DNA of 64,000 nucleotides, taken from positions 1,671,129 to 1,735,128 of the forward strand of contig BCIN01000001.1 of assembly GCA_039545335.1 (NCBI GenBank), in the 5' to 3' direction. Under the pieces are notes generated by a model. That model saw only the letters and a program-made list of their open reading frames with translations, was not told where the DNA came from and made no database searches. Source of the stretch: Kondoa subrosea (taxonomy: Eukaryota). This document shows positions 33,687-46,678 of the stretch, in pieces. Both the position numbers and the translations under genes were made by a program. Position 1 is the stretch's first letter. The number at the start of each line of letters is the position of its first letter.

Positions 33687-35310
33687 ATGAGCGAATTGCT
33701 ATCTTTTGATCCGACAGAGCATCCAGTAGGCCGGTCCTACAGCCAACAGGGATCAAGCTCAACGCTACTTGGTGCAGCATAGGCGTTGGAATCCATTGCA
33801 GAAGACTTGGGTGTTATGCAGTCCTCATAGAACAAAGAGACCTTGGCAAGGACAGCAAGAGGCTGCTTCTACTGCAGTCTTGCCAGATTATGATCCGAAA
33901 TGGTGCGTTGTGATATTGCTTCTTCCCCTGCAATCCGCTGGAAACATTGCACAGCTATTTGTGTCCTGGCAATACACGAGCAAATGGAGAGACCAATGAG
34001 CAGTATAGCTCTACTCATATCTTCGAGGTATGCTCGACTGTCCTTTATGTGTGCTCTTGTAGCTGAGCATGAGACAGAATGACTTTGCAGCTGTCAAGCA
34101 AGACGAAGTTGATCCAGCTACAATGTTGGTAGAGGGAGCTGGTAAGCTCGTCCGATCTTTCTGTGATCAATACTAAGGGCTTGATAGGCGAACAAGCTCT
34201 GGATTCGCATCTCTTCAAGTCCGAACCTGCTCGAGGGAAATGTCATGTCATATGCTTTAACCCAAAACACTCTTTAACTTGTTTGTTCTGGCTGGCTTTT
34301 ATCGTTTTCGTGCTGATCATACTTCTAGTGGCCGAATTATCACAGCAAGATATTGTACCAATCATCGAAGCCTGGTCAGTCTTGCCTTTCTTCACACGAC
34401 CCTAATTAAGCAAAATTAGGCAACATCTCTATCGTACTGTATCAGCCGAGAATCCTTGGATTCAGTATACCCAGCTTTTCGAGAACAAAGGAGCCGCAAT
34501 GGGTTGTTCCAATCCTCATCCGCACGGACAAAGCTGGTCTCTTTCCTATATTCCAACCATTGCGCAAACTCAGTTGAATTCTCTACACGAATTCGCTTCG
34601 TTGCCAATTCCAAGCGATAACAAAGCTCCTTCATTAGCAAACGGCAAACCTTCCCTTTTACTCAGTTACGCTTATTCGGAACTCAATTCTGCTACCCCTT
34701 CACCTCGAGTCATATTCTCTACAGAACATTTCGTGGCTTTGGTACCTTATTGGGCATTATGGCCTTTCGAAGTCATGGTCCTACCTTACAAAAGACAAAT
34801 CTTGAATATGGTTGATCTAACGGAAGAAGAGAAATTGGATTTGGCTGAAACGTTGAGAAGAGTAACATGTAGATTGGATAATCTGTTCCAGACTAGTTTT
34901 CGTATGTTTTCCGACCTGCAATTGCCAGAAAGGGGGTTCATTGCTTGGCCGATGACAAAAACAGCGTACTCTATGGGTGTTTATCAATTACCTTCGACTA
35001 ACAATACTCAAGATCGGGATGTGGCTCATTTATACTTTTCTTTCTATCCTCCTTTGCTAAGAAGTGCCTCAGTAAGGAAGTTCTTGGTTGGGTGAGTTTA
35101 TCCTCTAACTCTATTTCATATCACTAATGCGCTGTCATTTGTTAGATTTGAGCTCTTTGCAGAAGCGTTAGTATCTCACTTCATTGGCAATTCTATAGCT
35201 GAATAAGGTACTGGACAAACAGTCAAAGAGATTTAACACCGGAACAAGGTGCAACTAGAATTAGGGAGCAACAAGAAGTACATTACAAACAGGTCAAATT
35301 ATCTGAGTAA
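33687..35310 (+). CDS. GAL7: Galactose-1-phosphate uridylyltransferase
   Basis: [36 protein letters not shown], catalytic [46 protein letters not shown]. Confidence 0.96.
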
Positions 35311-37046
35311 TAATACGATCAATAAGAATCCTTTCGTGTTCCCCTCGTGTCATCTATTCGAAGTTGGAATGTCAAATCCTCGAATTCGCTTCAGCGGCTG
35401 TCAATTTCGGTTGAGCTTTGGCTGCCCGTTTGTGACCTATATGCTGAATTAAACTTACTTCGTGCTGTGATGACTTCTCTTTCAGGTCTTGCATCGTAGT
35501 TGCACGTGAACCAGCTTCTCTCGATTGCGATTCTAGCCAATCAGCAGGTACTGGTGGTAGTTGTCGAGTATACGGGGCTGTTCAGTCGTTAGTAGAGTCG
35601 TGAATCTCAACTGATGGCTCACTTGAGGCAGACAAGTGTCGTCCGGGCGACTGCAAGTGATATCAGAATAGCAAATGAATCTCGAACGACCGCATACTGC
35701 AAAGGATGAATCGAGCGAAGGTCTCACAGTATGATGCATCATCAAGACAGACACAGGAAAAGGAAAGGATGCTGGAAAAGAGAGCTCGAGAAGATGACCG
35801 CGAAAAGACGTTAGACAAAGGGAATCTTTTGTATAACCCGTACCAATGCAAGTAATATAGATCGTATACAGCTTACTGACTTAATAGATCGACAATCGCT
35901 ACAATCTAATCCTTTGAAAGAGCTGTAGAGACAATCAAATCGTGAGATCACCGTAATCGCTTGAACTGACCTTTCCTGCTCTCGAGCAGCATGGCGCAAG
36001 TGTTCCTCATTTTACATTCAATGTGTCTCGCCAAGATATCTTCTGAGGTCTTCAATCGAGAGCCTATGATATCACCGCGAGATGCCACGAAGAGGAAAAG
36101 GGCGAGAAGAAGATGGCTGCCAAATCGTGCTCTGAGGGAATTCATGATATAGAGATGAAGTTCCCGCGAAAGAACCTTTTCTGAGACAGTTGATAGACTG
36201 GTATAAGTTGAATGTAGATGTTTGCCGAGCGCGACGAGTTTGGCTTGATATGTGGGACGGAGGTGATAGTAGAGGCGCAGAATAGCAGATGGCTGAGATA
36301 TAGAAGTCCAGGACATGCTAGTTTGCGATTGTGCAAGCTGATTCTGCTGCCAGACGAGAACAAGATAAGTACTTGAACGCGCTTGAACCAGAAGAAATGA
36401 CTGACTGCGCTGTTATCGCAAGTTTTAGTTGAGAGCGCCTGAACAGATGAGTTTCCATGTTGTTCTATAGCTTGATCACCTATAGCATTCATGTCATAAG
36501 TATTTGGTGACAACGCGTGTTTTGCTTCGTATACACTCACCCCTTGTCTCAGCTTTGCTTTTGCCAGAGCGATGAGTCACAGCAGTGCAGTACTGCACCT
36601 CGCGACCATCTTCAGCAACTCCGTCGATGATGAGGAAAGCGAGACCAAACATCGCGTAAAGGAAAGTGTAAAGGAAGGAGTGTAAAGCGAGAAAGGAATG
36701 AACGGAGGAGGGAAGAGATGCGTAAGAATGTCAATGCCAGCAAAACAACATCAAGACATGCGCAGATAGAAAGGGCACGCGGCGTTTCTAGACATCTGAG
36801 CTACGTGCGAGAAATCGACTTCTAGCTCTGCATTTACCACTGTGGCCAACAAGACAGGCAAGAGAGCACAGCTCAGTTTGAACAGAGCACAGCGAATGTA
36901 GCCAGCTGAGAGACGGCTGCTTCGGAGAGAGAAGTGAGCAAAGCGCGCAAATTGAAAGGCGGAAAGGCGGAAAGGCAGCTTAGGTAAGGTAAACGTGTGC
37001 TATACATTTCACAAATTGCCCTTTGGCTCGAAAAAAATACAAAGAT

Positions 37047-37227
37047 TGATGCGAGCCCTCCGAAGAGAGTCGCATCGTTCAAAATATTAAGCAACGCTAC
37101 CCCCCAAAGGAGAGCAGCCTCTATAAGCCACTACCTGAAGAACCGATACGTGTCGCTGTGCAATGGATGCGGCTTATAGAGGACAACCACGATGCTTGAG
37201 CGCTCGTTGCCATCGCAAGGTAAGTAT
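37047..37227 (-). ncRNA. U1: U1 spliceosomal snRNA (copy 1)
   Basis: Exact reverse complement of 42878-43058, with 5' AUACUUACCU, AUUGCAC, an Sm site and a UUCG-capped 3' stem. Confidence 0.9.
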
Positions 37228-37334
37228 GAAGAAGAAAGACAGGATGTTTGGATTTTCGAAGGTCATTCAGTCTGCGGCTCAAGCCGTCCGACAGACTTCG
37301 GATCACAGAACCGAGGCCGTTTTGTAAGTTGTCT

Positions 37335-37364
37335 AGAAGAAGAAGAAGAAGAAGAAGAAGAAGA
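37335..37364 (+). repeat. (GAA)n microsatellite at the inner end of the left inverted-repeat arm
   Basis: About 9-10 perfect GAA units. A degenerate TTC counterpart lies at ~42703-42725 and another GAA run at ~42506-42524. Confidence 0.85.
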
Positions 37365-37495
37365 GAGGGAGAATCAGAGGGGCTCGATGTAGCTGAAGAA
37401 GCAACAAAGAGTCGACCTCTGATCTTCGAATTGCTGGTCAAAGAAGAGTCTATTAATGTGTATTGATTTAGCTTTACTATCGAGGCAGATGGCTA

Positions 37496-40400
37496 TTAAG
37501 GGTTCGCGAAGACATATGCTGGTTTCCCTGGTTCCGCTGCCTCGACGCTCTTGCTCTCATGTTCCGGACCTTTTGATTGTTCTGCAATAAAAAGCTTGAC
37601 ATCCGAGAATCCAAGCTGTCGCAGCAGGTACGGTCGCATCTTCTGTAGAACGTCTTCTTCGTCGAAGCCCAGACCTCTTTCGAAAGCAGCGTCTGCTCCT
37701 AAAGTGTCAATGTTGGACTATCGACATTTGTCAGAGAAGGTTCGGCGAAATCCAAATTTTTGACTCACCTGGAAGTTTACACAGAAAGGCATGGCCTTCT
37801 TGTCTTTTGCCAGACCTGCTTTTATAACCAAGTCTTTGACCTTCGACCGATTGATCATCTTGCTTTCTGAATCGTATGCTTCTTTGATGATCTCGAGACA
37901 CTGTTGCTGCCAAGCCGGGAACTCTTTGGCGATGTACAAAGTGAGAACTTTTGGTTTGCTAGGGTCATATGATCCTGGTTCAGTTGCCTTGCCTTTCTTT
38001 GCCTTCTTCTTTGCTATCTGGAATTCAGCATCTCGTATATCTTTGACAGTTGTTCGAACGTAGGTTGCTGCATTGATGACAGAATAATCAATAGGTTTCG
38101 ATATCGTAGGGAAGCGGGCGTTTTGGATGGATTCTTTCTCTCCTAATACTTCGCAATACAGATGTTCAGCTGTATGCGGTGCGACGGGATTGAGAAGAAG
38201 TGCTTGTATCTTGATGAAGTAGAAGACGAGATCATGGTGCATACTTGGCTCGCCATCGGAAGATAATATCTTCGTCACATCGCGGTACCAATCACGCGCG
38301 CCCAAAAGCTCGTAGAGAGCATACTATAGGATTCTCAGCTATTCTGAAAAGCATTCTCAGGGACACTCACCTTGAGGGCGTCCTTGTACATTGCGCTGCC
38401 AAATCAACATGAGAACTGCTTTGCATACGTTGCTTTTCCTCAAGCAAACTCACTTGGCGTATAAATCCTTCGCCTTCTCGACACAAGCATTGACTTCATT
38501 CTCGAAGATAGAATCGTAAAAGTTGTACTCGCCGGTCCGTAGACTCGCTTTGTTCCGCGATTGTTCCTAAAGTAGCACGATGTCAGCACAGATCTTGCAA
38601 ATGGTCATTACTCACCTCAGACCATTCTATCAATGTGAACAAACGAAGAATGCTTGCGTTTGCAGTGTATTCTTCGAAGTTAGCGTCCTCCATTCCATCT
38701 CCAGCGTCTGCAATAGCAACTCGACTGGCGTCTGCACCAAATTTGCGTACTGAATCTGCAAGAGTAAGCGAATTGCCGGTTGATTTGGCCCTGTTCATAA
38801 ATGTCAGATTGGAAAAGTTCGGTACAATCGTAGCACTGACATCTTCTTTCCGTTTAATAGCAAGTGACCGTTCACGCGCATACTTCTGGGCCACTGATCT
38901 TCTTTGAAAAGAGCTGCGTGTACGTAGATACACATTGTCAGATGATTGTTGATGAGATCTTTGCCTGACGAGCGAATGTCCATGGGATACCAATATTCGA
39001 ATTCATTAAGCATAGCTTGAGATTGCTCTTGTGAAATTGGTGAAGATTCAGGGAATGGTGCGCCAGTAAGAATATGATCCCAAACTTCGTCTGTCATCTG
39101 TTCTGGCTTGATGCCTAATGCTCCAGGTTGTTTGCCTTCCACGTCGGCTAGTCATGAGATTTGAGCGACGTAATTAGACGCGCGGATAATCACACACCGT
39201 GAAGCAGGTGCGCGATGGTGTAGTAGGACATATAGATAGTAGAATCGCTCAAGCTTTCGACCAGGAATTGAGGATCCCAGGGTAGCTTGGTCCCCAGGCC
39301 ATAGCTGCGAGCACATGCCCATTCTTGAAGCCAGTTCAGGGTAGCTTCGAAAGCATTTCGTGTCTCTTGACTGTAAATGGTCATGCTCGCTAGCAGTCTG
39401 CGAGAAAGTCAAAATAGCTCCAATACAAGATCAAGCGACTCACTTCCTGGCCCTTTCTTTCCACTCCTTCTCGCCATAAGCCATGTACCATTGGTCGCAC
39501 AAGGCAACAACACATTCATCAGCACTCCGACTCATGACCATGTTCTCTGGCTCTGAGTAGACAAAGGCAGTACCGGCCTGGATCATTTGGTCCCGTACTT
39601 TGTTCTTGACCTCCTCGACCCGTTGTCCTTTAAAGTCGCCCGCTACCATGATGCCTCCATAGAAACCTTCTTTGTAAGCAATCTCTTTGGCTTCCGCTAG
39701 CTGCTTAATGTCCTTTTGAGAGTTGATCTTGAGCTGTTTACATAGAGCAGGAGCGGTCAATTCGCCATACGTAGGCGTTTTGAGAACTGGAATGGGATCA
39801 ATTGCTGCCCATTTTGGATCAATACCGTAATATTCTGCCTTCTTGCGGAGGTCGAGGAGAGTTTGATAATCGTCAGGTGAATCAGAAGGGACCGATGTGA
39901 CGACTCCAGTTCCCTGAGGTAGAGAGAGGAAGATTATCAGACCGGAACATCAAAGACAGAAGTTGAGATACTTTTGTTGCGAGGACATTCTCCATTGGAA
40001 GGACGTAGACCTCGCTATTGGGTGCTAAACTATTGGGTGCACGAATCTTTGTACCGATGACAGCTTTACCCTGAATTTCTGCTATCTTCTCAACCGCATC
40101 TCTTGAATGCAGTAGTCCCTGATAAGCCATATTGCGAGCGGATCGTTCCGTACAGAGGTAGACTTGGTTGTCGCCTTTGGCAAGATACAAGCCATACTTG
40201 ATGTTCACGCCAACGAAGCAATTTGTCTGACCATACCTGGTTGGAAGCACTTCAGCTTTAGATCTATATACTTATGAAATTGACTCACATGGTCTCTGGT
40301 CTGAGAGTAGCAGCAACGAGGAAGACCTGCTTCCCACCAATGGCCTGACCAAGGGCGCTATTTGCCTCAGCGCTCCATTCCAGTACTTCCATCTTTATAC

Positions 40401-41687
40401 CAGTGTATTCTTGCGGTCCAACACCTTCTCCGCTCGACCGATCGTGATCCATACAAGGTTGACCATCTTTCGGCGAATAGATAGTGTAACGCTCGCCAAA
40501 CTTGATGTATCCCATTTTATGAAGCTTATTAACTTGCCAGCGCACGAAAGCATCGTAATAAGGATTAGCATCGGTAGTAAGAAAAGATCTACGCCAATCG
40601 ACTTTGGCTCCAAATGCTTTGAGGTCTTGTTGAGCAATCGGTGGGAAATATGTCAACCAGTATTTTGGATCCGCAAACTTCTTAATTTCTGCTCGTGGGA
40701 CACCAATGGACTCCATAATTTGGAACTGATAAGTAAGGCCAGTAGACTTTGCGTTCAGTTTGCCTTTTTTCGATTTCTCGACATTTGAAGTGGTTGCAGA
40801 TGTGGAAGGTGCCGAAGCATCCGCGTTGCTAGCAGGCGGCGGTCCAACAGGTGCGCTTGTTCTGTAGTAGGTTCATCTCAGTGCAGGTAATATGACTAAT
40901 TATACTGAACTCACGCTGCTGGTTCATTCTCGGAGTAGTTTTCGAAATCCTGGCCAAACCGTTCCATTTCTCTAATGAGCTTATCGGAAGCCGCCTGTAG
41001 TAGAGTGAGATACAAAATCCTCTTGATGATTGGCTATGCACCTTGATTGGCATGCCAGTGCAGTGAAATCCAATCGGTACAAGCACTCGCTTGCCCTGCA
41101 TACGCCTAGGTAGAATGAGCACACGCCCAAGACTTAGCACATCTATACTCACTCTACACCTGCAGCGAACTCGATCTTCGAAATAGTGAAAGCATGACCA
41201 AGATGTAGAGATCCGTTCATATATGCATAAGGTGATCTGTCCGAAGCCTAAGCGAAGAAATGCGGAATTCACAGTACGACACACGTTCCAAACCATTTCG
41301 GATACTTTGCTTTCATTTCCGCTTCAGATAGATCCATGAGAGACGAATCTGAAATGTGCATGAGAAAGAAGCTCTTGCCAATGGTAAAATCAAAGCAAAC
41401 CTTCTGTAGCTGGAGCATTGACTTCAAAAGTCTTGTCCTGAGAGGTTCATGACGAGCTTCAGCTCAGCAAGGACGCAAATCTGTGCGACCTACATTTGCC
41501 CATTTCGCTTGTATTTTCTTTTCAATCTCAATGAGACGGTCTCGCTTGCCAGTCTATCGATACCTGCTCAGCGTCGAACCATTGGTGCTCTTGCCTCGTT
41601 GCTCACATTGGCCAGAGCCATTGTTTCCTGAGCTTGCTTTTCAGCGACAGCTCTTGCAGCGGCCGAGGCAGAATTGACAGCAGCCAT
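37496..41687 (-). CDS. CDC60: Cytosolic leucyl-tRNA synthetase
   Basis: [13 protein letters not shown] (HIGH motif), [84 protein letters not shown] (intron-split), [17 protein letters not shown]. Confidence 0.97.
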
Positions 41688-41764
41688 TTTGGTATAGAAG
41701 CGTTGCACTAGAGGATATCTCAAGAACTGAATGGTGCACCGTGAGGAAGCTGCGCAAGGTGCAA

Positions 41765-41771
41765 TGACTCA
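41765..41771. promoter_or_regulatory. Gcn4/CpcA-type element TGACTCA ~80 bp upstream of the LeuRS ATG
   Basis: Exact heptamer. Aminoacyl-tRNA synthetases are classic general-control targets. The motif is short and could be chance; another copy lies at 44497-44503 just upstream of MET1. Confidence 0.35.
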
Positions 41772-42664
41772 ATTTGACAATTTTGGTCCTCGCGTTTCTT
41801 AAGTCAAATCTGTGCAATGGGCTCGCGTAAGCCTTGATAGAAGTATGCAAGCTAGTGCACAAAAGTGACACGTGAATGTATGTTCATGCAACGAAGGAGA
41901 TAAAGACATATCAGCTGGCAGGCCGAGCACCCTCTTAATCCTTGGTTCTCGCGATTCTTAGACACTTCGATATTCGCTCCAAGTCTCGATCAGGGAGAGT
42001 CCAATACACCAGAAGTGTCCGGAAGTGTCTGAGGCAATCCTCTCGAGCTGGCAGAATGAAAGAAGCCGAGCTGAAGAAGGAGAGACCATCTATTGACATA
42101 TGTGGACGGATCTCACGATGTACTTGCTCTTAGTCAGAGCGACTACGAGGCCAATCTGAGCATACCCTTCCTTTGATGGTTCAAAGTACTAACCTCCTCA
42201 TGCAATTCGTGCGATCGTGCGAGGCGCTACTCCGAACCAGAGCGTCTGCTCTAAGCATACTATGTTCCTGTTGGCTCAATTCCAAATCTCATCAGCACTC
42301 ACGTCCGGTGAAATCGTTTGAGTAGAATGTACCTCTCGAGCCATCCAGCAGAGGACAATAACTTCCTCGACATCGTTACGGAAGAAAAGACACCGACACT
42401 AGATAAGAATCGAGTAGGAGAGAAGCGAGAGACAACAATCGAATTCAAGACTGTATGAGGAGCAAGACCATTCTGATGACATGTTTGAGATAGAAAGTGG
42501 GTGACGAAGAAGAAGAAGAAGAAGCTACATGTATTGAGAGCGCTAGACTGTGCAGGTTGCGCTGTCAATACTCTGTTGTATTCCTGAAATTATCAGTTTG
42601 GCTTACCTGCATCACTGAACCTAGCTTCGTCACTGTGCCGAAAGCAACGACAACTGTTGGTTTC

Positions 42665-44058
42665 CTGTTCAGCTACAGCGAGCTCCCTCTGATTCTCCCT
42701 CTCTTCTTCCTCTTCTTCTTCTTCTCAACTTCTTCCACTCATTCTTGCTTCTCTCTCAGAGCAGAAAAAAAGACAACTTACAAAACGGCCTCGGTTCTGT
42801 GATCCGAAGTCTGTCGGACGGCTTGAGCCGCAGACTGAATGACCTTCGAAAATCCAAACATCCTGTCTTTCTTCTTCATACTTACCTTGCGATGGCAACG
42901 AGCGCTCAAGCATCGTGGTTGTCCTCTATAAGCCGCATCCATTGCACAGCGACACGTATCGGTTCTTCAGGTAGTGGCTTATAGAGGCTGCTCTCCTTTG
43001 GGGGGTAGCGTTGCTTAATATTTTGAACGATGCGACTCTCTTCGGAGGGCTCGCATCAATCTTTGTATTTTTTTCGAGCCAAAGGGCAATTTGTGAAATG
43101 TATAGCACACGTTTACCTTACCTAAGCTGCCTTTCCGCCTTTCCGCCTTTCAATTTGCGCGCTTTGCTCACTTCTCTCTCCGAAGCAGCCGTCTCTCAGC
43201 TGGCTACATTCGCTGTGCTCTGTTCAAACTGAGCTGTGCTCTCTTGCCTGTCTTGTTGGCCACAGTGGTAAATGCAGAGCTAGAAGTCGATTTCTCGCAC
43301 GTAGCTCAGATGTCTAGAAACGCCGCGTGCCCTTTCTATCTGCGCATGTCTTGATGTTGTTTTGCTGGCATTGACATTCTTACGCATCTCTTCCCTCCTC
43401 CGTTCATTCCTTTCTCGCTTTACACTCCTTCCTTTACACTTTCCTTTACGCGATGTTTGGTCTCGCTTTCCTCATCATCGACGGAGTTGCTGAAGATGGT
43501 CGCGAGGTGCAGTACTGCACTGCTGTGACTCATCGCTCTGGCAAAAGCAAAGCTGAGACAAGGGGTGAGTGTATACGAAGCAAAACACGCGTTGTCACCA
43601 AATACTTATGACATGAATGCTATAGGTGATCAAGCTATAGAACAACATGGAAACTCATCTGTTCAGGCGCTCTCAACTAAAACTTGCGATAACAGCGCAG
43701 TCAGTCATTTCTTCTGGTTCAAGCGCGTTCTCAAGTACTCATCTTGTTCTCGTCTGGCAGCAGAAGCAGCTTGCACAATCGCAAACTCGCATGTCTTGGA
43801 CTTCTATATCTCAGCCATCCGCCATCATCCGCCTCTACTGTCACCTCCGTCCAACAGTTCAAGCCAAACTCATTGAGCTCAGCAAACATCTACATTCAAC
43901 TTATACCAGTCTATCAACTCTCTCAGGAAAGGTTCTTTCGCGGGAACTTCATCTCTATATAATGACTTCCGTCAGAGCACGATTTGGCAGCCATCTTCTT
44001 CTCGCCTTTTTCCTCTTCGTGGCATCTCGCAGTGATATCATAGGCTCTCGATTGAAGA
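42665..44058. repeat. Right arm of the ~1.35 kb inverted repeat (partner 36049-~37400)
   Basis: Reverse complement of the left arm, plus an extra ~45 bp (42726-42770) absent from the left arm. Confidence 0.97.
42878..43058 (+). ncRNA. U1: U1 spliceosomal snRNA (copy 2)
   Basis: 5' AUACUUACCU. Closing helix GCGAUG(42889)/CGUUGC(43009). SL1 GCAAC/GUUGU. 14-bp SL2 stem 42923-42936/42974-42987 enclosing the U1A site AUUGCAC (42941-42947). SL3 CUGCUCUC/GGGGGUAG. Sm site AUUUUG (43020-43025). SL4 with a cUUCGg tetraloop, followed by a T-rich tract. Confidence 0.92.
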
Positions 44059-44515
44059 GTGGAGCTGTCACTTGGTCCGAAGTTATACTGGCGTTATTGA
44101 AAAGGTGCTTACGTTTGGAGCTGAAACAAGGCAGAGAAGTGAAAGAATTGAGGGTGGATCAATGTAAGAGCTCACTCATTGCCTTCTAGCCATCAATTGA
44201 GTCGTATCCGATAGCTGCTTGAGCTTCCAATTTGTGGATGCATGATTTCGAGCCGGACTTGAAGCTGAATAGGATTCTCATGCATGGTTCTTGGGACTAG
44301 CTGGATCGATATATAGGGTACAAAGCAGTGTGAACGTCCGTGTCGCTTGCCAATACTATGCTATACTCTATTGTCTCTGAAGCTTATGTAATTGTGTGGC
44401 GGATAACACCGTGCTATGGCGAGCTTGGAAGATTTTTGATTACTTGGTCTTCACGCGCATGTCCTCTGTATATAGTAGGTGTCAGTACCTGTGAATTGAC
44501 TCATCTGATATCTCG

Positions 44516-46678
44516 ATGATAGAGGAGCCACAGGCAGGCGCTTCCCTGCTGCTCGCTTTCAACGCTTCCGCTGGCACATCTCGGCGGACAATACTTGTGA
44601 TCGGACAAGGTCGTCTAGCTGCAGCTCGAATATACGCATGTCTAGAAGCTGGCTATCGAATATTGCTAGCTCAAGATGAGACGAAACCTGTTGATAAAGA
44701 ATTAGCCTACCGATTGCATGAACAGCAAATCACCAGCATACCTTGGACAAACGACAGCTTGGACGCACTCTTCGACTCTCATCCGTTACTCCTGCAAGAT
44801 ATCTGCTTCGTTTTGATCACCGATACGCTCAAATCTGCAGCAGGAACTCAAACACCTCGACCTCTTTCCTCTGCAGCCATACTTAAGCAAGCCTGCTATA
44901 TACGGAGAATCCCTGTCAATGTATCGGATGTACCTTCTCTGTCTGATTTCACATTTCCAGCAACACATCGGTTCCCAATATGCAGTTCGGATTCCAAAGC
45001 CAGCCCGCTACAGTTGGCAATCACGACCAACGCTTCTTCATGTCGACTAGCTACAAGGATAAGAAGAGCATGCATATCAGCCTTGCCGAAAAGCGTGGGT
45101 TCTGCTGTTGCAAGAGTTGGCGAACTTCGAGAATTGGTCAAGAAACACACAGCGGAGCAAGAGCTAGCAGGCGACGAAGAGGAAGAAGGCTGGAGTACTG
45201 TAGCTTTAAATAAGCCAGTAGTTCAAAGAACCCAAAGCGCTCCCTATTGGCAGAAACTGTCTCGACAAAACAGCTTCCAACCGATAGACCTATCGCTCGA
45301 CCTCAAAGCCATCGTTCAGCAGCCTTTACTCACACCACCTCCTTCTCCTCTCTTCTCTCCCACCGTGTCTAATATGGCTGATGCACCATCTCGCCTAAAC
45401 ACGGTAGCTAGAATGCGCTTCGTTTCTCAGATTTGTGGGTCTTCAGTTTTCGCCTATTGCTTCACGCAGCTGATTTGAATCATAGCTGAATATTGGCCGA
45501 TGGATCGTCTCAGCTCACTGTCCGATAAGGAGGCTCTTGAACTTCTGGAAATAGAAAACCTCTCGCTATCCTCTTCGAACGATCTTCCGCAACAATCTAC
45601 GAGTGCTGAGATATCATCAGGTGAACCATCATCCGTCAAGAACGTCATAACAAATCATTCCTCGTTACACGATAATACAAATTCTGCAACTGAAGACTCT
45701 GCAGAATCATCTCGACATGCTCTTGCCATCACAGCTCCTGCGGGTCTTAAATCAGCTCGAAAGGGTAGTATAGTGCTGATCGGGTCTGGTCCGGGCAGTC
45801 CAGATCTTTTGACGCGAGCTGCCTATTCTTTCCTCACTCAACGCGCAACATTAATCCTCTCGGACAAACTCGTCCCTTCTGAAGTCCTCGCCCTTATTCC
45901 ACCTCATATCCCTCTTGTCATCGCAAAGAAGTTCCCTGGCAATGCTGAAGGTGCTCAATCCGAATTGATGGAATTAGCGATTCAAGGTGCTGAAAAAGGA
46001 GAAACGGTTGTTAGATTGAAGCAAGGCGATGTTTATTTGTATGGAAGAGGTGGTGAAGAAGTGCTCTACTTCAGAGAAAGAGGTTTTGAGCCGCTTGTCT
46101 TACCTGGTCTCAGTTCTGTTTTGGCTGGACCGACTATGGTTGGCATCCCGGTTACGCAAAGAGGTGTAGCGGAAACAGTGGTTGTTTGCACTGGTGTAGG
46201 AAGAGGTGGAAAAGGTGTTCAAATGCCTGGATATGAGCGAAGTCGGACAACCGTTGTCTTAATGGGTGTAGCGAGGTTGGCTGGTGTTGTCAATGCGCTT
46301 ACATCTGCTGAGGGATCGGAAGAGCATGGAAGAGAAGGTGGAAAACGAGAGGGACCCGCTTATCCGCCTCATCTGCCCATCGCCATCATTGAAAGAGCAA
46401 GCTCAAAAGATCAGCGACTTATTGCTTCAACTTTGGACGGTATCGTGGACGCCATGGAACGAGTAGGCGAACAACGCCCACCTGCTATGATGGTTATTGG
46501 CTGGTCTGTTCTTTCGCTCGAAGGTCAAGGCGATGTCTCGGTTCTGGACGGCGTTCAAGATTTATCGGCGGAGCAAGTCGTTCAGGCTGACAAGGCACGG
46601 ATCACAAGATGGCTACAAGGCAAATCGTACATTGAAAAGGATGGTCTGCCGACAGGATGGGAAGTTTTTCAGCAGTAA
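44516..46678 (+). CDS. MET1: Uroporphyrinogen-III C-methyltransferase (Met1-type, with an N-terminal siroheme-synthase-like region); one intron at ~45436-45485
   Basis: IPVNVSDVPSLSDFTFP, RLATRIRR, RMRFVSQI|EYWP, LIGSGPGSPDLLT, LILSDKLVP, RLKQGDVYLYGRGGEE, GIPVTQRGVA. Confidence 0.93.

Follow-up and report, generated by a model that had tools for sequence, protein, structure and literature searches.

A pair of inverted repeats, each carrying a gene for U1 small nuclear RNA (snRNA), brackets the gene for cytosolic leucyl-tRNA synthetase (LeuRS) in the basidiomycete Kondoa subrosea, and this locus raises the question of whether the LeuRS segment inverts and whether its inversion would matter. 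The window analysed was a 64-kb stretch of contig BCIN01000001.1 (assembly GCA_039545335.1), and all coordinates given here are positions in that window. An initial annotation of this DNA had described the repeats and proposed that they form an invertible cassette of the kind that switches mating type in some yeasts; its description of the structure is confirmed by our analysis and its interpretation is upheld in part, inversion being plausible and the likeness to a switch being unsupported. Our own reading, to which we give a probability of roughly 0.72, is that an old inverted duplication of a U1-bearing unit around LeuRS has had its core homogenised by gene conversion between the two copies, and that any inversion of the segment between them is a neutral by-product. 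Arrangements of this kind, in which a segment that could invert lies between homogenised inverted repeats, are already known.

The limits of the two repeats, hereafter called arms, were set by gapped alignment, together with a repeat search over the whole window at a threshold of at least 60 nt. The left arm lies at 36049-37412 (~1.36 kb) and the right arm at 42653-44058 (~1.41 kb), in inverted orientation and separated by a spacer of ~5.24 kb, which bears out the two inverted arms of ~1.35 kb described initially. Two inverted pairs, both belonging to the arms themselves, and 0 direct families were found by the search, with no other repeat of at least 60 nt anywhere in the window. Each arm consists of a core and two flanks. 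The core pair (36375-37334 and 42771-43730) is identical at 960 of 960 nt. The outer flanks were delimited by the repeat search as 36049-36376 and 43731-44058 (328 nt, 93% identity) and by the gapped alignment as 36049-36374 and 43733-44058 (302 of 326 positions identical), and the inner flanks, 37335-37412 and 42653-42731, align with 66 matches, 12 mismatches and 1 gap, the repeat search extending the core on this side by a 41-nt piece at 98% identity. A 2-nt insertion in the right arm sits exactly at the edge between core and outer flank in the gapped alignment, and a 39-nt insertion (42732-42770), also confined to the right arm, separates the core from the inner flank. The outer boundary of the arms is sharp, identity falling from 1.00 to ~0.3 inside 20 alignment columns. 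Both inner flanks consist of a (GAA)n run plus ~50 further shared bases; this microsatellite (37335-37365 and 42700-42731) stands at the inner edge of the core beside the 39-nt indel, and contigs built from sequencing reads break there.

The evidence for gene conversion lies in how identity is distributed along these arms. There are no differences in the 960 nt of the core compared to 24 in the 326 nt of the outer flank and 12 in the 78 nt of the inner flank (core versus both flanks, 0/960 against 36/404, Fisher P = 3e-20), and the chance of seeing no differences in 960 nt at the rate of the outer flank is ~1e-32. Selection on U1 and its promoter is excluded as the cause of this identity because the 673 nt of core downstream of U1 are also perfect (Fisher P = 1e-12 against the outer flank). 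The differences in the outer flank comprise 12 transitions and 12 transversions, fall on codon positions as 5/10/9 and would change at least 15 amino acids in every reading frame, and this neutral pattern at a divergence of ~7% indicates that the duplication is old. The step in identity coincides with the 2-nt indel on one side of the core and the 39-nt indel on the other, and an indel at each edge of the step is what the ends of a conversion tract would be expected to show. The arms are homogenised relative to their surroundings, as seen within this one genome, and on the sequence the perfect core is best read as the product of recent gene conversion between them. Repeat-induced point mutation was also tried as the source of the flank divergence and was rejected on the 12 transitions versus 12 transversions.

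We propose that a U1 unit (~185 nt upstream, the 180-nt gene and ~1 kb downstream) was duplicated in inverted orientation around a single-copy LeuRS gene and that the copies would then have diverged, by ~7% at the outer edge and by more at the inner edge, until gene conversion, a form of non-allelic homologous recombination, recently made the central 960 nt identical again. A minority of such conversion events may be resolved as crossovers, by which the LeuRS segment would occasionally be flipped. As the local junctions, LeuRS and both U1 units would all stay as they were, this would be a neutral structural by-product and not a regulated switch. The initial annotation also suggested that the inverted geometry keeps two U1 copies stable, a direct repeat being liable to delete LeuRS; that the geometry was selected for this reason is speculation.

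Support for the arms came from Logan contigs (k=31) of two sequencing runs, X1 and X2, placed on positions 34500-45500; 97% of the sampled words of the stretch were present in these runs. One end of the core is joined to two different outer flanks (contig records 2 and 7) and the other end to two different inner flanks (record 5 and a loose end in a TCT run at 42771), so that all four arm junctions are present in contigs, including the arm-specific variants of the 93% flank and of the 39-nt indel. The arms are therefore real in the reads, as only an inverted repeat yields this topology of junctions. Contig depth, which by the tool's own warning is only a rough proxy for copy number, was 143-151 (X1) and 52-56 (X2) in unique DNA, taken as 1x, and was ~1x both in the outer flanks (133-148 and 44-51) and in a 5.47-kb spacer contig (151 and 52). 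It rose to 308 and 114, or ~2.1x (308 against ~146 in X1 and 114 against ~54 in X2), in the core contig at 36375-37071. The possibility that one arm had been made by the assembler, which the initial annotation had named as a way for the repeat to fail, was checked in this way, and both arms are supported by contigs with the core at ~2.1x. As the 697-nt contig downstream of U1 stands at ~2.1x, the part of the arms outside U1 is limited to two copies, which argues against a dispersed element. Depth was higher over U1 itself, at 412 and 114 (~2.1-2.8x) in a contig holding the 5' part of U1 and ~106 nt upstream (42772-42920) and at 537 and 194 (~3.6x) in the U1 body contig (37047-37214). Beyond the window the genome probably has one or two more U1 loci, sharing the gene and ~110 nt of its promoter. 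One contig matches the U1 upstream region from ~42768 and then departs into 255 unrelated bases, and this is probably a third U1 locus.

The U1 gene of the left arm lies at 37048-37227 on the minus strand, and was found by searching 9.1 kb with Rfam model RF00003 by E-value (46.4 bits, E = 2.5e-9, model positions 1-166 of 166; the Rfam gathering score of this family is 69.5 bits). The right copy, at 42878-43057 on the plus strand, also matches RF00003 and is identical in sequence to the left. Both are transcribed outward, away from the LeuRS spacer, and so these full-length matches bear out an identical, outward-pointing U1 gene in each arm. The 5' end of the RNA is AUACUUACCU, aligned to model positions 1-10 with posterior probability '*', and includes the ACUUACCU that pairs with 5' splice sites. 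In the cmscan alignment loop I is UCAAG, loop II is CAUUGCAC and the AUUGCAC motif is present, an Sm-like site AAUAUUUUGA is found with UAAUAUUUUGA in the single-stranded Sm region, and the 3' terminal stem-loop has a UUCG loop, so that the loop motifs, the Sm site and the terminal stem-loop are all in place; the loop of stem-loop I, the AUUGCAC of stem-loop II and the Sm site are conserved features of U1. Stem-loop II has a 22-nt insertion relative to RF00003. The predicted fold of the RNA has a z-score of -4.0, better than all 200 shuffles, and the contigs break at 37047, which agrees with the 3' end predicted for the left copy. Both copies probably function, within a small U1 family of three or four genes.

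A default Rfam scan of the window at gathering thresholds returned zero RNA family matches. A scan of metagenomes with a U1 motif pattern gave 50 loci, and ten of these U1-like environmental loci scanned with RF00003 (L001, L005, L016, L019, L026, L033, L038, L041, L048 and L049) each gave a single full-length match to the model at 40.6-55.9 bits, every one below 69.5. A low score is thus typical for this kind of U1, for which the gathering threshold of RF00003 is too strict, and default Rfam annotation would miss a whole class of U1 genes like those of the ten environmental loci. The closest U1 in the metagenome scan was identical to ours at only 121 of 180 positions; none of the 50 loci (0/50) had LeuRS within the fetched flanks, these loci being too distant to inform on synteny, and none (0/50) had an inverted repeat of at least 100 nt over the position of U1. 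One of the environmental loci (L014:1-1540) has a 700-nt direct repeat of 95% identity around U1, which resembles a tandem U1 array and is unlike the inverted pair described here.

Multicopy spliceosomal snRNA gene families evolve in concert, the textbook cases being tandem arrays in animals. The U1 genes of K. subrosea are like these in that several copies share the gene body and the proximal promoter (U1 body at ~3.6x), and are unlike them in the inverted placing of two copies, one on each side of an essential gene unrelated to them. It is unlikely that the homogenisation was itself selected to keep a dispersed U1 family uniform. A narrow look in the literature for U1 snRNA inverted repeats with gene conversion gave only an irrelevant study of a grasshopper repeat, from which novelty does not follow.

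The spacer between the arms contains the whole LeuRS gene, as initially described for a spacer of ~5.3 kb. The coding sequence lies at 37496-41687 on the minus strand, with an ATG at 41687 and a TAA at 37498-37496, and was modelled by dynamic programming on codon score and splice sites as a spliced gene with 15 predicted introns of 47-84 nt, encoding an intact product of 1121 amino acids with no internal stop; a few of the N-terminal intron choices are uncertain. The modelled protein is 56% identical to Rhodotorula toruloides LeuRS over residues 22-1119, and a tblastn search with that protein (P0002) covered residues 23-1119 on the minus strand, with ungapped pieces which shift frame repeatedly, as many short introns would give. 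The best matches of the C-terminal exon are cytosolic LeuRS proteins of Pucciniomycotina and Agaricomycetes at 44-48% identity, nothing above 48% being found among 30 matches in the protein collection, and the best matches carry the class I tRNA-synthetase and anticodon-binding Pfam domains. The gene thus has an open frame with full-length similarity to eukaryotic cytosolic LeuRS.

Only 84 nt separate the stop codon of LeuRS from the left arm, and 269 nt separate it from the start of the left U1 gene, so that LeuRS and the left U1 are in tandem; the right U1 is divergent from LeuRS. The left U1 probably shares its upstream region in part with the 3' untranslated region (UTR) and poly(A) site of LeuRS. 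On the other side, the ~965 nt from the start codon of LeuRS to the right arm (41688-42652) have neither a coding-like signal on either strand (mean codon scores -6.5 and -5.6, maximum 3.3) nor a noteworthy RNA family match, and are presumably the LeuRS promoter and 5' UTR. In a genome of ~19 Mb whose genes are closely packed, this is a long stretch of non-coding DNA.

Does the LeuRS segment, then, turn round? Occasional inversion is plausible because the arms exchange sequence, as the perfect core within diverged flanks indicates. A crossover in the core would move the inner flanks together with the spacer, so that the two isomers would not differ in their local junctions, in their U1 units or in the promoter and 3' end of LeuRS. 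The two orientations also comprise exactly the same k-mers, and contigs of k=31 cannot cross a 960-nt core.

The best analogue, on comparison of the two arrangements, is the neutral flip/flop (FF) region of Saccharomyces chromosome XIV and not mating-type switching in Ogataea. As described by Salzberg et al. 2022 (PMC9731477), the FF region has 4.2-kb inverted repeats around 24 kb with 15 genes; these repeats are homogenised by gene conversion, of which ~4% of events are cited there as resolving as crossovers, and the two orientations recur within species with no known phenotype given. That report counts zero flips in ~53,800 mitoses and 950 meioses, so that orientation there is stable on laboratory timescales. 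The K. subrosea locus is like the FF region as reported in having highly similar, near-identical inverted repeats that flank a segment of one or more housekeeping genes, are homogenised by conversion and carry a small-RNA gene (tRNA-Ile there and U1 here). Inversion as a crossover by-product without known phenotype is described for the FF region, and would hold here by extension. The FF region is reported to lie near a centromere, to carry sporulation genes and to be found in both orientations in many strains and species, whereas the present locus, in a basidiomycete, has a single gene in 5.2 kb between arms of ~1.4 kb (960 nt identical) and has been seen in one orientation only. A further likeness is to recurrent mammalian inversions such as that of FLNA-EMD at Xq28, where inverted segmental duplications are described as kept similar by conversion, with recurrent neutral inversion of the genes between them (PMC3961182, PMC9731477); these cases differ in their scale of tens of kb, in their lineage and in having a demonstrated polymorphism.

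Our reading may be extended to a passive polymorphism, in which recurrent crossovers would have left both orientations among strains or at low frequency in culture; we hold this only tentatively. The recent exchange between the arms, visible as a 960-nt perfect core amid diverged flanks, speaks for it, as do the reports that homogenised inverted repeats accompany recurrent inversion in Saccharomyces (PMC9731477) and that human inversions mediated by inverted repeats are highly recurrent (PMC3961182). Against it, a single sample with a single orientation has been seen through contigs shorter than would cross the core, and the arms are ~3 times shorter than the Saccharomyces repeats, for which the count of flips given above was itself zero (PMC9731477). 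By analogy, then, it is possible, if doubtful, that both LeuRS orientations coexist among strains through continual conversion between the U1-bearing arms.

Several points weigh against the reading of an old duplication homogenised by conversion. X1 and X2 represent one sample, probably the source of the assembly itself, and so the support for the arms is not from independent material; the copy numbers share the roughness of contig depth noted above. As contigs cannot cross the core, trust in the orientation given for the window depends on the data with which the assemblers spanned it. The U1 genes score below the gathering score of their family. No close relative in which to trace concerted evolution was found (C-terminal LeuRS matches at 48% or less, U1 at 121/180 or less in metagenome loci). 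Finally, codon scores in the arms are weakly exon-like at ~36400-36730 on the minus strand, where an ATG follows a CT-rich tract and a 60-nt intron is plausible; strong constraint on a gene or RNA downstream of U1 could have kept the core perfect, and a second, very recent copying event could also have made it so.

These last two points together make up an alternative in which there was no conversion and the core is perfect through constraint on an unrecognised element downstream of U1 or through a second recent duplication. The candidate small gene would lie at 36142-36652 on the minus strand by codon score, with its ATG at 36652 and a possible GTGAGT...TATAG intron at 36481-36540, the codon score being exon-like only in the part named above; its mirror copy begins at 43453 on the plus strand and changes frame at the 2-nt indel. 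This candidate has no homologue in Pfam or among 1.84 billion representatives. The five ORFs of the arms (5/5) have no Pfam family above cut-off, the best being DUF1622 at E = 0.013, and a phmmer search with a 144-aa arm ORF against these representatives found no credible relative and one weak repetitive match (E = 8e-6). A complete lack of change in 960 nt, synonymous and intron positions included, is rare under selection, and the identity step falls at indels on both sides, as conversion would have it. We consider this alternative unlikely.

It is very improbable that the locus is a programmed cassette whose regulated inversion alters the expression of LeuRS, U1 or the neighbouring genes. 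The geometry alone speaks for it, apart from the precedent of Ogataea polymorpha and Komagataella phaffii, where, as here, kb-scale inverted repeats can invert a segment without loss of DNA (PMC5720833, PMC4238957). In those yeasts starvation is reported to induce the inversion, which brings MAT genes under centromeric or telomeric repression or releases them from it (PMC5720833, PMC4238957). The present locus is unlike them in having no MAT genes, no silencing region in the window and no change of junctions, so that no output is expected: both isomers would keep the same junctions, U1 units, LeuRS promoter and 3' end, and the spacer holds LeuRS and ~965 nt of non-coding DNA only. Nor is a repressive landmark to be seen, as there is no other repeat, the GC content is flat across the window at 43-50% and the neighbours are housekeeping genes; no centromere-like or telomere-like repeat or AT-rich block was found within 36 kb to the left and 20 kb to the right. 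No recombinase, transposase or mating-type gene was found among the 40 other ORFs scanned across the window, which are housekeeping or without a family. Of the invertible cassette first proposed, therefore, the mechanistic plausibility of inversion stands, since the arms exchange sequence, and the analogy with Ogataea and Komagataella does not, given the unchanged junctions and the lack of switch machinery.

That one arm, or the inverted arrangement itself, was made by the assembler is equally hard to credit. Repeats which exceed read length are often misassembled, and X1 and X2 are probably the assembly's own data, but the four junctions occur in contigs, the core is at ~2.1x in both runs and both outer flanks attach to the same core end. 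Least probable of all is that the arms are transposon copies or a U1-targeting element such as the Dada DNA transposons, which are reported to insert into multicopy small-RNA genes, snRNA genes among them (PMC3706591), and with which the ~3.6x depth of U1-body k-mers could agree, as the arm ORFs contain no transposase or other family, neither terminal inverted repeats nor a target-site duplication is seen at the arm edges (these absences having been claimed from the start and now borne out), the non-U1 core at ~2.1x is accounted for by these two arms alone and the U1 genes are uninterrupted.

Both neighbouring genes lie outside the repeat. To the left is GAL7 (galactose-1-phosphate uridylyltransferase), the last exon of which is at 34406-35095 on the plus strand (PF02744, E = 3.6e-31; PF01087, E = 4.1e-12). 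To the right, at 44495-46678 on the plus strand, is a MET8/MET1-like gene (PF13241, E = 7.3e-11; PF00590, E = 4.7e-35), in which a MET8-like part (NAD_binding_7, Sirohm_synth) is followed in frame by a MET1-like tetrapyrrole methylase part. The two parts are split by a single in-frame stop at 45476-45478, which may sit in an intron and so make this a fused CysG-like sirohaem synthase gene. Other housekeeping proteins encoded in the window include an ion channel, eIF3a, Arp2/3 p34, Rpn13, an RSN1-type channel, Bro1/ALIX, a WD40 protein, a DnaJ protein and DASH Ask1. A tRNA scan of the window found 0 genes, and a scan of the left arm for bacterial-type promoters and terminators, a type of scan inapplicable to a eukaryote, found nothing.

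These findings leave the general understanding of inversions and of snRNA families unchanged. In the K. subrosea genome there are some three or four copies of U1, their gene bodies identical, of which a default Rfam scan at the gathering cut-off would report none. Short-read assemblies of this region are not to be relied on for the orientation in which they place LeuRS. If conversion between the U1-bearing arms does turn this essential gene round repeatedly, so that both orientations coexist among strains, the locus would be a miniature flip-flop region in which snRNA genes are the cargo being homogenised, matching the chromosome XIV FF region in a lineage beyond the Saccharomycotina. If both orientations exist, it would be a very small and simple natural case, in a basidiomycete, of recurrent inversion by repeat homogenisation, and one suited to measuring the share of conversions between 1-kb inverted repeats that are resolved as crossovers.

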